Source: a virus (Duplodnaviria > Heunggongvirae > Uroviricota > Caudoviricetes). Taken from it: a DNA stretch of 43,691 nt. Made by a program: the position numbers and the translations under genes. The DNA is taken from IMG/VR virus record IMGVR_UViG_2645727945_000025, positions 1-43,691 of that record. One strand, written 5' to 3'. The notes under the pieces are model-generated. The model saw nothing but the letters and a program-made list of their open reading frames with translations. It ran no database searches and had not been told where the DNA came from. Shown one piece after another: positions 1,445 through 43,691 of this stretch; the stretch's first letter is position 1; every line of letters starts with the position of its first letter.

Positions 1445-1462
1445 TTTAAATCAATAAGTTAC
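1399..1462. repeat. attL core: 64-bp direct repeat (tRNA 3' half plus 18 bp), identical to 41138-41201
   Basis: Exact 64-bp identity between the two positions; flanking sequence diverges on both sides. Confidence 0.85.
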
Positions 1463-2619
1463 CTCACATTTAAGTAAATCACGTTCTCCTCTTGTGCCGT
1501 ATTTGTGCCATTGCGACTTATAATTGCATCGATTTTGCTCGCGTGCTCGGTGAGATGCCCGGCTGAAAGGTGGGCGTATCTTTGAACCATTTCGAGAGTT
1601 TCCCATCCTCCCATCTCTTTAAGTGCAAGAAGAGAGACTCCGGACTGAACCAGCCAGCTTGCCCAGGTGTGTCTCAGGTCATGGAATCGGAAGTTGCTAA
1701 TGCCTGCCCGCTTTAACGCTCCCTTCCATGCTTTGTTGCTATCGGTTCTCATCTTCCTTACCGCAGCTGTTTTTGTTCCGTCGCTTCGGTAGGCAGGTTT
1801 GGTGTGGACAAATACCCATCTCTTATGGAGCCCCTGCTGTTTTCTTAATATCTGGCATGCGGTTTCGTTAAGAGGAACTCCGATCGCATTGCCAGCTTTT
1901 GTTTCATCAGGGTGCATCCATGCCATTTTCTTATCCAGATCGACCTGTGACCACTCAAGGTCTGTAACGTTGGAACGGCGAAGGCCTGTCGTGATTGCAA
2001 ACATGACTACAGGGAAGAAATGAGGAGCAATTTCTGCAAACAGGCGCTTCGATTCCTCCTCTGTAAGCCATCTAATGCGTCCATTCTTAACGCGTGGTGT
2101 TGATATTTTGGGCGCCCTGTCAAGCCATCCCCATTCAACAGCCATATTGAGAATAGCGCGAAGTATTGCCAGATGCCGCGTCTTCGTTCCTTTGCTTGCC
2201 AGCTTTGGTTTATACTCCGGCACTGGCTTGCCAAGCCGCAAACACCTGTCCCGGCTCATTTCCCAGTTCAGGCGATGGCGGCGGTTTTCCATCCCGTCTA
2301 CCGCCTCCATTATTTTTTCTGTTGTTATGTCTGAGAGAATGGTTTCTCTGAAGTGCAACATCCAGAACGATATAATGCTCTTGTCATCATCAATGGACTT
2401 CTTATCCGATTTCTCACGAAGCCACCGTATGCAGGCTTCCTTGAATAGCTTTTTCGGTGATTCCCCGAGATTTTTTACTCTCCACGCTTCTGCTTTCAGA
2501 CGATCGTGAAGTTCTTGCGCTTGCCTTTTGTCCGATGTTTCAAGAGAGCGTCTAACTCTTGATCCATCTGGCGCGACGAAATCACAGTGCCACGTGCCAC
2601 CGCGTAGTTTGATTGACAT
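1459..2619 (-). CDS. int: Tyrosine integrase (P22/lambda family), 386 aa
   Basis: C-terminal catalytic motifs (HDLRHT...W, ...MVQRYAHL); stop codon lies inside the att core next to the tRNA. Confidence 0.95.
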   Translation of the reverse strand: MSIKLRGGTWHCDFVAPDGSRVRRSLETSDKRQAQELHDRLKAEAWRVKNLGESPKKLFKEACIRWLREKSDKKSIDDDKSIISFWMLHFRETILSDITTEKIMEAVDGMENRRHRLNWEMSRDRCLRLGKPVPEYKPKLASKGTKTRHLAILRAILNMAVEWGWLDRAPKISTPRVKNGRIRWLTEEESKRLFAEIAPHFFPVVMFAITTGLRRSNVTDLEWSQVDLDKKMAWMHPDETKAGNAIGVPLNETACQILRKQQGLHKRWVFVHTKPAYRSDGTKTAAVRKMRTDSNKAWKGALKRAGISNFRFHDLRHTWASWLVQSGVSLLALKEMGGWETLEMVQRYAHLSAGHLTEHASKIDAIISRNGTNTAQEENVIYLNVR

Positions 2620-3723: not shown

Positions 3724-4008
3724 TTATTCAGTGCTGATATTTACCTTTATAGCGAACACCTTTACCGGTTTATCGCCGAAGTGCGGATGTGTGATTGTCT
3801 TGATTTCATATCCGTCATACGGGACGTCAATTCTGCGACTGAAGTCTTCGCGCTTCGGATATCCCTTTGTGATAATCAGGCGGTCATACTTACGGTTAAC
3901 GAGGCGCTTATTCCAGTAGTCATTACACAGGCGATACTCTTCCGTTTTCTCCCCGCGAATCATGGCATCGAAGTATTCACCTTTAACGGCAAGTTGCAGG
4001 TTAGCCAT
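3724..4008 (-). CDS. Hypothetical protein, ASCH/PUA-like by motif
   Basis: Track ORF; start at Met8 with GGAGG RBS and TAATG stop-start overlap with upstream gene. Confidence 0.5.
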   Translation of the reverse strand: MANLQLAVKGEYFDAMIRGEKTEEYRLCNDYWNKRLVNRKYDRLIITKGYPKREDFSRRIDVPYDGYEIKTITHPHFGDKPVKVFAIKVNISTE

Positions 4009-4268
4009 TACCGCACCTCCAGTCTCCATACCGCCTGACCAATCCGGCTGGCATAGGTATCTTTGGATACTGCTCCGTCTTTAGCCAGCTCCATAAGAAT
4101 TTTGCGCAAATCTGCCGAACGCCATTCTTCATCAGGAAATTCCTTCTCCATTGCCAACCGCAGATTCCAGGTTGCCATCCTGAATGGATATTTCCCGCCG
4201 AGAGCTTTATCTTGCAGGGCAGCCCGGGAACGCATCACCTGCAAAACCTTCTCTTTTACATCCATCAT
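4008..4268 (-). CDS. Hypothetical early protein (86 aa)
   Basis: Track ORF, translationally coupled to neighbours. Confidence 0.5.
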   Translation of the reverse strand: MMDVKEKVLQVMRSRAALQDKALGGKYPFRMATWNLRLAMEKEFPDEEWRSADLRKILMELAKDGAVSKDTYASRIGQAVWRLEVR

Positions 4269-4834
4269 TTCGCCTCCTGCGGCGGTTCTGGTAGAGGCAT
4301 CCAGTGAGTTGCTTGCTCAATACCATTACCCGGCTTAATCGTTACATCTCCGCGCCGAAAGGTGATTCCGGTATAGCGTGCGGAGCATATTAGCGGTTCA
4401 ACCAGAGAGCTATCGAAATTCACCGAAATAAGCACGTTCTGATTCTTTTCCGGCATTCGCTCACTACAGCTTATCCAACCATCCGGAGTTCCCGGAGTTG
4501 GTCCATCGAATTTGGGCATGTCAGGACCTTTTCTGATAGCTTTAGCCAGCTCCAGCGGGTCATCGTAAAGCCAGTCGCCAGTTTGTGGGTGATTTGCTTC
4601 TGCAAGCTGCGCAGCCCATTCAAGACCATCTTTTTGACCTTGAAGATAATCAAGTGGCAACTCTTCATGATTACTTGCAGGTTCGGCACTATCAGCTTCG
4701 CGCCGCTTCTGTAGCTCTGCTGCCATTGCTCTCACGACTTCAACTGGTGCCCTTGCAGCAAACTCTATGTTGGTGATCAGCTCATTAAGATATTGCTCGC
4801 TGGGATACTGTTTTTTATCGGTTATAGTGGTCAT
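4265..4834 (-). CDS. Hypothetical early protein with DUF551-like C-terminus (W.PLPEPP)
   Basis: Track ORF 4265-4876; start at Met15 with AGGAG RBS. Confidence 0.5.
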   Translation of the reverse strand: MTTITDKKQYPSEQYLNELITNIEFAARAPVEVVRAMAAELQKRREADSAEPASNHEELPLDYLQGQKDGLEWAAQLAEANHPQTGDWLYDDPLELAKAIRKGPDMPKFDGPTPGTPDGWISCSERMPEKNQNVLISVNFDSSLVEPLICSARYTGITFRRGDVTIKPGNGIEQATHWMPLPEPPQEAK

Positions 4835-4835
4835 A

Positions 4836-5231
4836 TCACTCTCCTTTTCCCTGAAGCATAGCGGCACGGCAGGCATTCCACCCCTTCACATAACCGAACG
4901 CCATCAACTGATCACTCATGGCGGGCAGCATTGTGTGGGTCGTACTGATTTCTTCCGGCACTACCGGCGCTGGCGGGGTGATGCGTCCAAGCAACTTATT
5001 TACCTCTTTCGCCATCGCGTCATATTTATCTAAATGGCGATTAGCTTCTAAGCAGACTCGGCGCATCTGATCTGAGTTAACTCGTTTAACTGGATCTGCT
5101 TCCAGCGATGCCAGCGCAATCCGTGCCAGTTCTTCCGCTTCTTCTGCTGGCAGTACAACGTTGCTACCAGGTCCGTATGTTTCGCGCCACTGCTTGATTG
5201 TCAGCAGTCGCTCTTTGGTAATAGTGATCAT
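4836..5231 (-). CDS. Hypothetical early protein (131 aa)
   Basis: Track ORF in operon context. Confidence 0.5.
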   Translation of the reverse strand: MITITKERLLTIKQWRETYGPGSNVVLPAEEAEELARIALASLEADPVKRVNSDQMRRVCLEANRHLDKYDAMAKEVNKLLGRITPPAPVVPEEISTTHTMLPAMSDQLMAFGYVKGWNACRAAMLQGKGE

Positions 5232-5743
5232 GCCGCGTTTCCTTCTTTCTTATTAACAATTACACCGTCATATATTTCATTAAGGTGCCCTCTCAACTCC
5301 ATGCGCCTTAATGCAGATAACATGTAATCGCATTCAACCTGCTTATTTCCAGTAAATGGCTTATCGTCAGGATTACCCCAACAGCAATTACCCTTGGGCC
5401 ACCCATGTACTTTCCGTACTCTTCCGTTAACAACGTGAAGTAATCCCCAGCCAGGTGGTAAATCCTCAACTGAAATAATTCCCGGCTCACTAATAAAGAA
5501 TCGCCAGTCGCCCATTCCAAGAGACGGATTTTTACGAAAACGCTTTTTTCTATCTGCCAACAAGTCAGCACGAGAACATTTCGCCTCTATCAGGCATGAT
5601 GCTGAATTTCTGAATCCCATAGCATCTGGCTGTTCTCCGGTACTGGTTACAGCTATAAAGCGGTCATGAAAACAAACCTTGAACCCGTTGCGCTTAAGGA
5701 ACTTGTACGCAATCTGACAGAGTTCGCGGTGTGTTAACGCCAT
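5228..5743 (-). CDS. Hypothetical protein with PD-(D/E)xK-like motif (PD...EAK), 171 aa
   Basis: Track ORF 5228-5815; start at Met25 with AGGAG RBS; near-identical paralog at 42890-43405 in prophage 2. Confidence 0.55.
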   Translation of the reverse strand: MALTHRELCQIAYKFLKRNGFKVCFHDRFIAVTSTGEQPDAMGFRNSASCLIEAKCSRADLLADRKKRFRKNPSLGMGDWRFFISEPGIISVEDLPPGWGLLHVVNGRVRKVHGWPKGNCCWGNPDDKPFTGNKQVECDYMLSALRRMELRGHLNEIYDGVIVNKKEGNAA

Positions 5744-5744
5744 A

Positions 5745-5933
5745 TCACTCTCCTTTAGTGCGCAAGTGGTTTTTCCAGCGGTTTTGCGCCGCGCTGGGCT
5801 TTTTGCAAAAACCACAATCCATCATCCCGTAATGTTTCATTAACCCCATCCGTCGGTTGCTGAGTCTCACCCACTGCCAGACGCCAGGAGCGTTTCTACG
5901 AACTAACAGAATCTTTGCTTTACGGTTTTTCAT
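5745..5933 (-). CDS. Hypothetical small basic protein (62 aa)
   Basis: Track ORF with GGAGA RBS; segment absent from the homologous position in prophage 2. Confidence 0.35.
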   Translation of the reverse strand: MKNRKAKILLVRRNAPGVWQWVRLSNRRMGLMKHYGMMDCGFCKKPSAAQNRWKNHLRTKGE

Positions 5934-6105
5934 CGCTTTGCTCTCCTGCGTCTCTTTGCTGCTCGTCGTGCCGCTGCAATACCGGTATGGCGGCGCTTTG
6001 GTGCCGGGATGATGTTGTCAGCCATCAGGACATACGGCTTTGCAATTAGCGCAGAAGCCCAAAAACGAGTCGGGTACGGTAACAAGCCGATACATGCCAC
6101 ACGCA

Positions 6106-6789
6106 TTACTCACCTCCTTTGATGCGAATGCCTGCGGCGCGGATTGCAGCGATGACTTCAGAAACTTTGTATGCCATTACCGTTTGGTAATCATCGTGAA
6201 AATCTGTTCGATGAAGCATGCTGCTACGTTCCGGGAGCGATATTTCCCGAGCATCCAGTTCCTTAACGCGTTCCTCCAGTTCGTAGACCCTGCATTGTTC
6301 TCTATCATCAATCAGATATACCCCAAGACATTCGCTTTCTACCCAACCGCCAAAATCATGATCGTAACGCTCACATGAAAACTCACCGTCACCGTCCTTT
6401 GTTGGAATGGTGTAACTATCTAATGGGCCACCATATGTCGGCACATTTCCCAATGTTGGATGCTCAATCCACATGAAAAATGCACGTCCGGTTATTGGGC
6501 AAATATCTGGCCGCCATTGGTTACGAACAGCCTTGGTTTCGGATAATTCTTCAGCGTGTTGTTTTACTTCCTCAAGCTCAACACGCAGCTTCCCTACCGT
6601 TAGCGCAATATCCTCGTTCTCCTGATCGCGGCTTTTGATGTATTGCAGGTTTCTTTCCCGTTCATCCAGCATTGCCAGCACAATCGATGGTGTTACCAGC
6701 TCATGGAAAAGGTCCGCGTCAAATCCCCAGTCGTCATGCATTGCCTGCTCTGCCGCCTCACGCAGTGCCTGATGGTCAATTTTGCTCAC
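6106..6789 (-). CDS. Hypothetical early protein (227 aa)
   Basis: Track ORF; 3' and 5' parts homologous to the partial gene at the window end (43408-43691). Confidence 0.55.
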   Translation of the reverse strand: MSKIDHQALREAAEQAMHDDWGFDADLFHELVTPSIVLAMLDERERNLQYIKSRDQENEDIALTVGKLRVELEEVKQHAEELSETKAVRNQWRPDICPITGRAFFMWIEHPTLGNVPTYGGPLDSYTIPTKDGDGEFSCERYDHDFGGWVESECLGVYLIDDREQCRVYELEERVKELDAREISLPERSSMLHRTDFHDDYQTVMAYKVSEVIAAIRAAGIRIKGGE

Positions 6790-7045
6790 TGGCTGCCTCC
6801 GCTTCCCACGTTTTCAAACTTTCACCACAGAACGGGCAAAAGCACATTGCAACGCCACGACCGATATATTTCCCCGAGTGAATTTGAGCAATATCTATGC
6901 ATGACTCGCCGGTGTTTATGTTCACACGCTCCGGGATAAATATGCCTTTACTCTTGAATGTTGGATTTCCATATTCGAGAGATTTTGCCAACGCCGCGCA
7001 CGGTTCTATCTTGTTGCCATTAATTTGGCATTTTGACTCACTCAC
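6776..7045 (-). CDS. Hypothetical Cys-rich protein (89 aa)
   Basis: Track ORF, overlaps neighbours in operon fashion. Confidence 0.45.
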   Translation of the reverse strand: MSESKCQINGNKIEPCAALAKSLEYGNPTFKSKGIFIPERVNINTGESCIDIAQIHSGKYIGRGVAMCFCPFCGESLKTWEAEAASEQN

Positions 7046-41137: not shown

Positions 41138-41201
41138 ATTCGTAATGCGAAGGTCGTAGGTTCGACTCCTATTATCGGCACCATTTAAATCAATAAGTTA
41201 C
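41138..41201. repeat. attR of prophage 1 and attL of prophage 2: second 64-bp core copy with tRNA 3' fragment
   Basis: Identical to 1399-1462; the 5' tRNA half is not reconstituted here (no GCCGAT acceptor strand upstream). Confidence 0.85.
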
Positions 41202-42361
41202 ACATCATTAGTACCTTCCTTATTTTTTGACTGGGACAAATTTGGGACCGATGGGTTCAGAATCGAGTCTATTTGCCGTGCGTGTTCGGTAAGGTGATTA
41301 GGCGCGAGGTGAGCATATCGACGAACCATTTCGATAGACTCCCAGCCACCCATTTCCTGTAACACTGACAACGGGACTCCGGCTTGAACCAGCCAACTTG
41401 CCCAGGTGTGTCTCAAGTCGTGAAATCTGAAATCATCAATACCAGCTCGTCTCAGCGCCGCTTTCCAGGCTGTGTTTGCGTCATACCGCATCTTCCTTAC
41501 TGTTGGCGCTTTCGTTCCGTCTGGTTTGGTACAGCTTTCCTTGTACACAAATACCCAACGGTGATGATTCCCGATTTGTTTTTTCAAAACGCGACATGCA
41601 GTATCATTCAGCGCAACGCCGATTGCGCGGTTTGATTTACTCTCTTCCGGGTTTATCCATGCCACCCGGCGCTGCATATCTATTTGTTGCCATTCAAGGT
41701 TGATGATGTTCGAGCGTCTTAAACCTGTTGCCAGTGCAAATTCAACAACAGACTTTAATGGCTCCGGACATTCATCAATCAGCCTTTGTGCTTCATGGGG
41801 CTCCAGCCAGCGGATCCGTTTATTCTTTGGTTGAGGCACTTTAATAATTGGTGCCTTATCCAGCATTTTCCATTCACGCTCTGCGGCTCTTAGTAGGGCC
41901 TTTATAAATGAAAGATGCGTAGCCTTCGTTGCAACGGACGCTGGTTTTGGCGTGTATTCTGGAACAGGTTTCCCTTTTTTTCTGCATGCTTCTGCCCTGA
42001 GTTTCCAGTTTTCCTCATGACGCCGGTTCGTCATTTTCTGCATTGCTGAATAAATTTTTGATTCAGTAATGTCTCTTAGTTGCATTCCTGCGAAATGTTG
42101 AAGCCAGAATCCGATCCGGCTTTTGTCATCGTCCAGTGATTTTTTATGTGCTTTCTCTTCAAGCCACCTGACACACGCTTCCTCGAACGTTATATCAGGT
42201 ATTTCACCAAGTTTGCTGACCCGCCATGCTTCAGCCTTTAGCTTGTCATGGAGTTCTGTCGCCTGCCTTTTGTCCTTTGTTCCAAGAGACTGTTTAAATC
42301 TTTTACCGTTCGGCAATGTGAAACTGGCGTACCATATTTCACCTCTGCGGAAGAGTGACAT
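41198..42361 (-). CDS. int: Tyrosine integrase of prophage 2 (P22 Int-like, 387 aa)
   Basis: Recalled close similarity to P22 Int ([33 protein letters not shown]...); stop inside the att core. Confidence 0.95.
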
Positions 42362-42588
42362 TTTCTTTCCTCTGTTATGCCATCACCCGCGCTCACCTGG
42401 ACAGTATGCAGCGGAGACTGAAGAGCCGCAATGCAGGCTTGTCGTGTTGTGAGGTAAGGAGATTTATTCTTAGTGGGATCTTTGCGTGTTGCCTGAAGAC
42501 GCCCTGTGCGTATCCAGTTAATGGCAGTCGGTCTGGATATCTTGAGAAAATGACAGGCCTCATCGAGTGTGAGGCTGTATGGCTCCAT
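42238..42588 (-). CDS. xis: Excisionase of prophage 2 (116 aa)
   Basis: Internal Met29 of track ORF 42238-42672 with AGAGGTG RBS; overlaps int as in lambdoid phages. Confidence 0.65.
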
Positions 42589-42893
42589 TATTTCACCTCT
42601 TGCTGTGACATTGTTGAAAAATGGATACCAGCTCGTTGCTGCCAGATGATCCAACCGAGAGTCATATCCCATGCCATGTATTCGTTATCGCCGTTTTTTG
42701 CTCTCCGACGATCTACTAAGTCACCAAAACGCTTTTCCATGAATAATTCATAAGCTTCGCGTTCATCTGGTTCTACTTCCAGAGATAGGAGTGCGATTTC
42801 ATAAGCCCGGCGCTCAATATTGTCTCGAACGTCCAAGCTACCAATTCGCTCTCTGATTTCTTTAATTAGTTCTTTGTCGGTTAAAGTGGTCAT
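42588..42893 (-). CDS. Hypothetical early protein of prophage 2 (101 aa)
   Basis: Track ORF. Confidence 0.45.
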   Translation of the reverse strand: MTTLTDKELIKEIRERIGSLDVRDNIERRAYEIALLSLEVEPDEREAYELFMEKRFGDLVDRRRAKNGDNEYMAWDMTLGWIIWQQRAGIHFSTMSQQEVK

Positions 42894-43405
42894 GCTGCGT
42901 TTCCTTCTTTCTTATTAACAATTACACCGTCATATATTTCATTAAGGTGCCCTCTCAACTCCATGCGCCTTAATGCAGATAACATGTAATCGCATTCAAC
43001 CTGCTTATTCCCAGTAAATGGCTTATCGTCAGGATTACCCCAACAGCAATTACCCCTGGGCCATCCATGTACTTTCCGTACTCTTCCGTTAACAACGTGA
43101 AGTAATCCCCAGCCGGGAGGTAAATCCTCAACTGAAATAATTTCCGGCTCACTAATAAAGAATCGCCAGTCGCCCATGCCAAGTGAGGGATTTTTACGGA
43201 AACGCTTTTTTCTATCTGCCAACAAGTCAGCACGAGAACACTTCGCCTCTATCAGGCATGATGCTGAATTTCTGAATCCCATAGCATCTGGCTGTTCTCC
43301 GGTACTGGTTACAGCAACAAAGCGGTCATGAAAGCAAACCTTGAACCCGTTGCGCTTAAGGAACTTGTACGCAATCTGACAGAGTTCGTGGTGTGTTAAC
43401 GCCAT
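42890..43405 (-). CDS. Paralog of 5228-5743 (PD-(D/E)xK-like motif protein), 171 aa
   Basis: Near-identical protein and DNA to the prophage-1 copy; start at Met12 of track ORF. Confidence 0.55.
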   Translation of the reverse strand: MALTHHELCQIAYKFLKRNGFKVCFHDRFVAVTSTGEQPDAMGFRNSASCLIEAKCSRADLLADRKKRFRKNPSLGMGDWRFFISEPEIISVEDLPPGWGLLHVVNGRVRKVHGWPRGNCCWGNPDDKPFTGNKQVECDYMLSALRRMELRGHLNEIYDGVIVNKKEGNAA

Positions 43406-43407
43406 AT

Positions 43408-43691
43408 CACTCTCCTTTGATGCGAATGCCTGTTGCAATGCTGTTTATGATGCTGTCAGTGCATGGGGTAGAAAGCTGGGCATCTCCAGCAATTTTCATG
43501 ACCTCAACATCTGCATATCGAATACCGAGGTGTATCAGACCGGCTATGCCTGACTTAAGCCGAGCATTTTCCATAAATAGAACTTTTGCCCGCTGTTTTT
43601 CTGCTTCAAGCTCAACGCGCAGCTTCCCTACCGTTAGCGCAATATCCTCGTTCTCCTGATCGCGGCTTTTGATGTATTGCAGGTTTCTTTC
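43408..43691 (-). CDS. Partial CDS (3' end only; 5' end beyond window), homolog of 6106-6789
   Basis: Open frame to the window edge; C-terminus ...IRIKGE and last ~90 nt match 6570-6660. Confidence 0.35.

Follow-up and report, generated by a model that had tools for sequence, protein, structure and literature searches.

The window, i.e., the whole stretch of 43,691 nucleotides that was analysed, carries two prophages arranged in tandem next to a tRNA-Thr gene (1369–1444). The integrase gene of prophage 1 (1459–2619, minus strand) is followed by about 39 kb of open reading frames (ORFs) that we read, from the sizes and order of the genes, as a P22-like prophage, and a second integrase gene (41198–42361, minus strand) is the first gene of prophage 2, which begins there and extends past the end of the window. 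Comparison of the window with itself by blastn returned a perfect repeat of 64 bp (1399–1462 and 41138–41201) that marks a duplicated attachment site. The two tandem prophages share this tRNA-Thr attachment site, the repeat taking in the 3′ portion of the tRNA gene and extending as far as each integrase gene, and their integrases are weakly alike (about 77% over 128 bp).

The nuclease, small-ORF and Ea22-like genes considered here lie on the minus strand throughout, in one co-oriented run that ends at xis and int and that, judged by its position, we read as the early-left operon. Prophage 1 presents an Ead/Ea22-like gene (6106–6789, minus strand; PF13935, E = 1.5e-19) upstream of a cassette of two small ORFs, then the gene of a 171-aa protein (5228–5743, minus strand), predicted below to be an MmcB-like PD-(D/E)xK nuclease, and downstream of it a 131-aa gene (4836–5231, minus strand); the nuclease gene thus stands after the Ea22-like gene and before DUF551, xis and int. 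The gene of the DUF551 protein is found farther down the same operon (4265–4876, minus strand; PF04448, E = 5.8e-22), as is a 101-aa ORF (3724–4029, minus strand) whose position is equivalent to that of a gene annotated “ASCH domain-containing protein” in RM12581. Prophage 2 presents the 3′ part of an Ead/Ea22-like gene that leaves the window (43407–43691, minus strand), a second copy of the nuclease gene (42890–43405, minus strand) and a downstream gene of 101 aa (42588–42893, minus strand). By PHROG comparison, the resemblance between the 131-aa and 101-aa downstream genes is confined to N-terminal family similarity. The original prediction was right about the ORF and its second copy, and is to be corrected in that it left the strand unstated, all of these genes being on the minus strand.

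The 171-aa protein contains the stretch ...GEQPDAMGF...LIEAKCSRADLLAD... and is, as had been claimed, near-identical in prophage 2, where blastn and alignment place the second copy. The block of homology between the prophages (42882–43418 against 5219–5756) is 96.7% identical over 538 bp in the comparison of the window with itself, and its limits lie a few bases past the nuclease stop codon and 13 bases upstream of the start codon. Within the gene, the copies differ at 16 nucleotides; of the 15 codons affected, 11 change synonymously and 4 non-synonymously (R6H, I30V, G88E and K117R), a pattern of purifying selection between them.

The segment 5744–6105 of prophage 1 is without counterpart in prophage 2. 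It holds two small ORFs, present in prophage 1 only, that code for basic proteins: one of 62 aa (5745–5933, minus strand; pI 11.6), which belongs to a family of the form “MKNRKAK...SAAQNRWKNHLRTKGE”, and one of 58 aa (5930–6106, minus strand; pI 12.0), which ends in an arginine-rich C-terminal tail. A Shine-Dalgarno sequence stands 7–9 bases ahead of the ATG of each, the stops and starts overlap or abut (TAATG, ATGA, TGAtATG), and each ORF corresponds over its full length to a separate PHROG family of unknown function (phrog_1380, 62/62, and phrog_13831, 58/58, respectively). The prophage-1-only segment of about 362 bp with its 62-aa basic ORF had been recognized beforehand; the 58-aa ORF had been overlooked, and the segment had been credited with a single ORF. 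A non-coding explanation of the segment was rejected, given that no Rfam family, promoter-like site or terminator-like site was found within it; a scan of 5000–6900 returned a single promoter-like match (5198–5225, plus strand), outside the segment, which is fewer than expected by chance. Composition gave no sign of a foreign origin, as the GC profile shows no discontinuity at the segment.

The boundaries of the segment coincide with two short linkers that combine a ribosome-binding site, a stop codon and a start codon. On the one side, the linker AAAGGAGGTGAGTAATG (6104–6120, minus strand) brings together a Shine-Dalgarno sequence, the stop of the Ea22-like gene and the start of the 58-aa ORF. 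On the other side, inspection of the sequence at 5741–5756 (minus strand) identified the linker AAAGGAGAGTGATATG, where a Shine-Dalgarno sequence is joined by the codons that end the 62-aa ORF and open the nuclease gene. Together they form a near-identical direct repeat, AAAGGAG..TGA.ATG. Prophage 2 has a single linker, AAAGGAGAGTGATATG (43403–43418, minus strand; blastn and alignment), whose left flank matches the end of the Ea22-like gene of prophage 1 and whose right flank matches the nuclease gene; the last 26 bp of the prophage 2 Ea22-like gene (43407–43432) match 6110–6134, and 43594–43691 match 6560–6657. This gene ends ...ATCAAAGGAGAGTGAtATG, right at the nuclease start, and its TGA precedes the nuclease ATG by one base (43405–43403), which confirms the TGA/ATG abutment described earlier. 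One linker with matching flanks in prophage 2 therefore points to the gain or loss of 364 bp, counted between the repeated AAAGGAG linkers (6120 and 5756), by way of short direct repeats, and the linker of prophage 2 can be taken as either the undisrupted state or the product of recombination. What was gained or lost, via recombination between Shine-Dalgarno/stop/start linkers, would thus be a cassette of two genes for tiny, very basic proteins.

A survey of other genomes found at least four structural alleles at the cassette site. The abutting junction of the Ea22-like and nuclease genes occurs in 131 of 5,426 complete E. coli genomes (coverage of at least 80% required), and the junction of the 62-aa ORF with the nuclease gene in 258 of the same 5,426, many of these on plasmids of about 95–118 kb. 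Because both forms are this common in complete genomes, the indel is not a sequencing gap. The suggestion that it marks a mosaic boundary holds as well, since homology between the prophages begins and ends exactly at gene junctions and the site has several structural alleles; the difference of about 362 bp is an ordinary lambdoid mosaic indel at gene boundaries, of textbook type. In 933W, both small ORFs follow the Ea22-like gene L0069, the 58-aa ORF carrying an in-frame deletion of 21 bp; homology then stops at ...GAGTGATATGGC, and the same linker as at 5741–5756 precedes a different gene. In TL-2011b, the first small ORF is followed by an extra “MKNRKAK” ORF, a divergent 63-aa paralogue and a nuclease gene that is 100% identical, and in Stx2a phages a small ORF of 54% identity stands beside an insertion sequence and before the nuclease gene.

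Several further observations were made around these alleles. Mini-ORFs of the “MKNRKAK” type (5745–5933, minus strand, in the window; P0440 and P0445; L003 3135–3499) stand two in tandem in TL-2011b. In the Stx2a phage Stx2_15436 (L004 2957–4113), an IS3-family element with two transposase ORFs has inserted just ahead of the small ORF found before the nuclease gene. In a close prophage of E. coli O145:H28 RM12581 (L001 5112–5290), the nuclease gene carries the annotation of a frameshifted pseudogene and is cut off before the DUF551 gene, and an IS3-family element interrupts an anti-RecBCD gene a few kb upstream. The block formed by Ea22, the small ORFs and the nuclease gene is found at 98–99% identity on many E. 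coli plasmids of ~93–119 kb, and it also matches the phage records P1 and RCS47 (115 kb) (H3–H15, H16–H21 and H149–H156). The cassette therefore moves between lambdoid prophages and such replicons, and the plasmids that bear it are probably P1-like phage-plasmids.

The variation within the 62-aa family bears on what the small ORFs do. Homologues at 45–98% identity form 61 clusters and are confined to Escherichia and Salmonella; the first seven and the last ~16 residues are invariant or nearly so, and the middle is hypervariable. The conserved ends of paralogues are identical in DNA too, despite unrelated middles, and two database variants keep both ends and translate the middle from another frame of the same DNA. 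This pattern suggests that the ends may be kept as linkers for recombination and translational coupling as much as for the peptide. A match of the 62-aa ORF to zf-C2H2_jaz (E = 0.09) was rejected: the candidate ligand H34 is a tyrosine in 933W, and the middle is not conserved. It could be argued instead that the nuclease is functionally paired with the 62-aa ORF, which might for instance act as a small basic regulator or inhibitor, in which case the indel would alter the behaviour of the nuclease rather than reflect neutral mosaicism. The version of 54% identity that adjoins the nuclease gene on its upstream side in Stx2a phages and TL-2011b is in keeping with such a pair, as are phrog_9263, which merges both sequences in one profile of 230 positions, and the single base between stop and start, which suggests translational coupling. 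However, the nuclease occurs without the small ORF in prophage 2 and in 131 complete genomes, 933W has the small ORFs without the nuclease, and what is conserved in the small ORF is its termini alone, at the DNA level, around a hypervariable middle that some database entries translate from a different frame. We consider a functional pair quite improbable and retain the reading of a cassette exchanged through its linkers.

Scans of the 171-aa protein against Pfam, NCBIfam and PADLOC gave no match at lenient thresholds (E ≤ 0.1 for Pfam and PADLOC), and its PHROG families are of unknown function, apart from a weak match to a “DNA repair protein” family. A search of the PDB with the single sequence returned lectin and oxidoreductase matches that were rejected as chance. 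A word-indexed search retrieved 325 relatives, all labelled hypothetical, and an exhaustive profile search (E ≤ 1e-3) extended the family to at least 3,260 clusters at 50% identity. Among 60 members, the sub-threshold Pfam matches were all to PD-(D/E)xK families, namely Hjc (33/60), MmcB-like (17/60) and AHJR-like (8/60). Distant homologues in phages of Acinetobacter, Vibrio, Shigella and Salmonella are annotated “adenylosuccinate synthase” (L007 3507–4166; L008 3429–4217; H66 and H67); they have no such Pfam match, so this looks like a propagated misannotation. Fusions also occur, i.e., a protein of 428 aa in which a TniB-like ATPase domain precedes the nuclease domain (P0133, L011 6001–7287), and others (P0091, P0103, P0009 and P0217) that join an Ea22-like N-terminus to the nuclease or the nuclease to DUF551. 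The Ea22 and DUF551 fusions are probably products of deletion at the mosaic junctions described above.

Across 60 aligned sequences with identities as low as 33%, D40, D60, G78 and R81 are invariant, and H5, E37, P39, E53, K55, S57, F61, D64, K67, R70, W99, G100, E137, R146 and R147 are conserved in at least 90%; E53 and K55 are invariant in alignment A2 and at least 90% conserved in alignment A3. The predicted catalytic residues are D40, E53 and K55, with E37, S57, R58, D60 and D64 conserved alongside. A first AlphaFold2 (AF2) model, built on a shallow alignment of close relatives, was poor (pLDDT 69) and gave way to one built on a deeper alignment (pLDDT 93.9, pTM 0.87) that has the alpha-beta-beta-beta-alpha-beta topology of the restriction-endonuclease-like core. 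In this model D40 lies just before beta2, at whose start the family-conserved catalytic aspartate belongs, and E53-x-K55 lies at the end of beta3, as expected for PD-(D/E)xK.

Profile comparisons point to a specific branch of this superfamily. With hhalign, the phage family aligned with an alignment of MmcB proteins at 98.2% probability (E = 3.5e-14). The family profile, compared with PDB sequences, matched 3DNX (E = 1.1e-4) with D40, E53-x-K55 and the S-R-x-D-F-x-x-D motif aligned, and the 3DNX sequence is itself a clear member of PF06319, “DNA repair protein MmcB-like” (E = 1e-31), in agreement with a published catalogue that lists DUF1052, COG5321 and 3dnx together (PMC3424549). Foldseek against viral models (BFVD) returned several matches named “MmcB-like DNA repair protein.” Homology to MmcB is thus found both by profile-profile and by structure comparison, with a shared ExK-SRxDFxxD motif. 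The window protein gave no match to PF06319 at E ≤ 0.1, and 17 of 60 relatives gave matches (best E = 2.9e-4) below its gathering threshold of 22 bits. The phage proteins fall below threshold for every Pfam and NCBIfam model and so constitute an uncurated phage sister family of MmcB. The PD-(D/E)xK proposal, which the conserved D and ExK residues already favoured, is therefore supported and sharpened, since structure and profile comparisons agree. More remotely, the profile matched PDB sequences of the archaeal resolvase Hjc with motifs aligned (E = 0.16); matches to the Hjc model PF01870 were all below its gathering score of 21.1 bits (best E = 1.3e-4). The phage family would accordingly be a distant homologue of MmcB/DUF1052, with archaeal Hjc-type Holliday-junction resolvases as still more remote relatives.

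The assignment of the 171-aa protein by fold and homology to the MmcB-related PD-(D/E)xK nucleases is very probably correct. Its catalytic activity, which we infer from the conserved motif, is probable. Catalysis has been lost in some PD-(D/E)xK-fold proteins, and the phage protein could in principle be another that keeps the nuclease fold as a non-catalytic DNA-binding or regulatory protein; the helix-1 acidic residue of Hjc is indeed not conserved in the family. Set against this, D40, E53 and K55 are invariant or nearly so in a very divergent family, which would not be expected of an inactivated fold, and the extended MmcB motif is retained, so that we regard a loss of catalysis as very improbable. 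On the preferred reading, the product is a small DNA endonuclease, probably dependent on Mg2+, that belongs to the PD-(D/E)xK (restriction-endonuclease-like) superfamily.

The neighbourhoods of homologues were inspected in six annotated phage records, in six metagenomic or genomic look-ups and among 274 ORFs from 70 IMG/VR loci, and no constant partner was found; a fixed partner gene was rejected in favour of a loose tie to replication, nin, methylase and ea genes. The homologues of virulent phages are about 205 aa long. In Vibrio phage C2 the homologue lies between two helicase genes and a primase gene, in Det7 directly before a T4 gp61-like primase gene, and in Acinetobacter HFM1 between a helicase gene, which comes first, and a VRR-NUC gene; one prophage homologue follows lambda-P-like and VRR-NUC genes, and Vibrio phage Kuja has a D12 methyltransferase gene that overlaps the homologue at its start. 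The neighbours were uninformative in three other phages and several metagenomic contigs. Within two genes of the homologues in the 70 IMG/VR loci, the annotatable neighbours comprise DnaB, SF2/SNF2 helicases, NinB, NinG, SSB, YbcO, seven DNA methyltransferases, Ea22, DUF551, excisionase and integrase, and most neighbours have no Pfam match. Since these neighbourhoods are heterogeneous and mostly unannotated, the context gives only a general signal of phage DNA metabolism.

Within that setting, the nuclease would most likely cut branched or damaged DNA arising in phage replication and recombination, and in our reading it is a free-standing accessory enzyme of phage DNA metabolism. A structure-specific role in repair or recombination is put forward tentatively, and the substrate, whether branched DNA, crosslinks or other, is extrapolated from distant relatives. 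The main rival is a restriction-like or exclusion role, in which the nuclease would be a weapon of the early-left region, i.e., a restriction-like, superinfection-exclusion, host-DNA-degrading or anti-defence accessory. Its location in the variable, mosaic “ea” accessory region, where it is swapped as a discrete cassette, would suit such a role, and some homologues directly follow DNA methyltransferase genes (the overlap in Kuja; 7 of 137 upstream neighbours in the IMG/VR loci). However, no cognate methyltransferase gene adjoins either copy in the window, where the neighbours are Ea22-like, small-ORF and DUF551-related genes; neither the nuclease nor the two small ORFs nor three longer homologues matched a defence model of PADLOC-DB 2.0 (E ≤ 0.1); the nearest homologous family is a repair nuclease and not a restriction enzyme; and homologues stand within the replication modules of virulent phages. 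A weapon of this kind is unlikely, and a role in repair or recombination is preferred. An anti-RecBCD function, for which the original prediction had proposed a test, found no support, the anti-RecBCD genes of a related prophage being separate and several kb upstream. A literature search found no experiment on a member of the phage family.

A wider reading would see in this uncurated family of at least 3,260 clusters, spread over temperate and virulent phages, a general phage nuclease for structure-specific or crosslink repair at replication forks, i.e., a phage counterpart of MmcB, perhaps modulated by the “MKNRKAK” mini-ORFs in lambdoid phages; this is a rather improbable generalization. Taken as a whole, a phage MmcB-related DNA endonuclease next to a cassette indel produced by recombination between linkers is the best explanation of the locus and a likely one. 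It provides an MmcB-like PD-(D/E)xK annotation for a gene that thousands of phage and prophage records from E. coli, Salmonella, Klebsiella and Vibrio, Shiga-toxin phages and P1-like phage-plasmids among them, list as “hypothetical protein” or, in error, as “adenylosuccinate synthase,” and defines predicted catalytic residues for mutagenesis. It also records, base by base, how cassettes are exchanged in lambdoid phages at short ribosome-binding-site/stop/start linkers. The annotation is useful and the example of mosaic exchange a clean one; the biology is ordinary, with no new kind of system.

Among known proteins, MmcB (PF06319, COG5321; 3DNX is SPO1766 of Ruegeria pomeroyi) is the closest likeness. 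Like MmcB, the phage family has the D...ExK-S-R-x-D-F-x-x-D arrangement, and the MmcB proteins are of similar size (about 150–170 aa). Identity between the two groups is only about 25%, and the phage family has features of its own in E37, the GMGDWRF loop, WGLL and a C-terminal helix with E137 and RR146-147. MmcB genes are chromosomal, mostly alpha-proteobacterial and SOS-regulated, whereas the phage family occurs in phages and prophages of Enterobacterales, Vibrio, Acinetobacter and others. The MmcB of Caulobacter is described as a PD-(D/E)XK endonuclease under SOS control that guards the cell against mitomycin C and cisplatin, with a proposed part in interstrand-crosslink repair (PMC9578287), and DUF1052 was earlier tied to archaeal junction resolvases (PMC1189080). 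Archaeal Hjc (PF01870) and AHJR-like nucleases have the same superfamily core and PD...ExK spacing as the phage family, but the catalytic glutamate in helix 1 of Hjc is not conserved there, position 7 being variable and H5 conserved instead. Enzymes of the Hjc and MmcB types are usually active as dimers. As for the junctions, homology blocks bounded by gene boundaries are likewise found in the lambdoid early-left “ea” region of P22-like and Stx phages, where short Shine-Dalgarno/stop/start linkers surround exchangeable cassettes just as they do here, and the same cassettes recur in 933W, TL-2011b, Stx2a phages and P1-like phage-plasmids. Measured against known lambdoid mosaic junctions, those of the window have nothing unusual about them, and what they contribute is documentation at base resolution.
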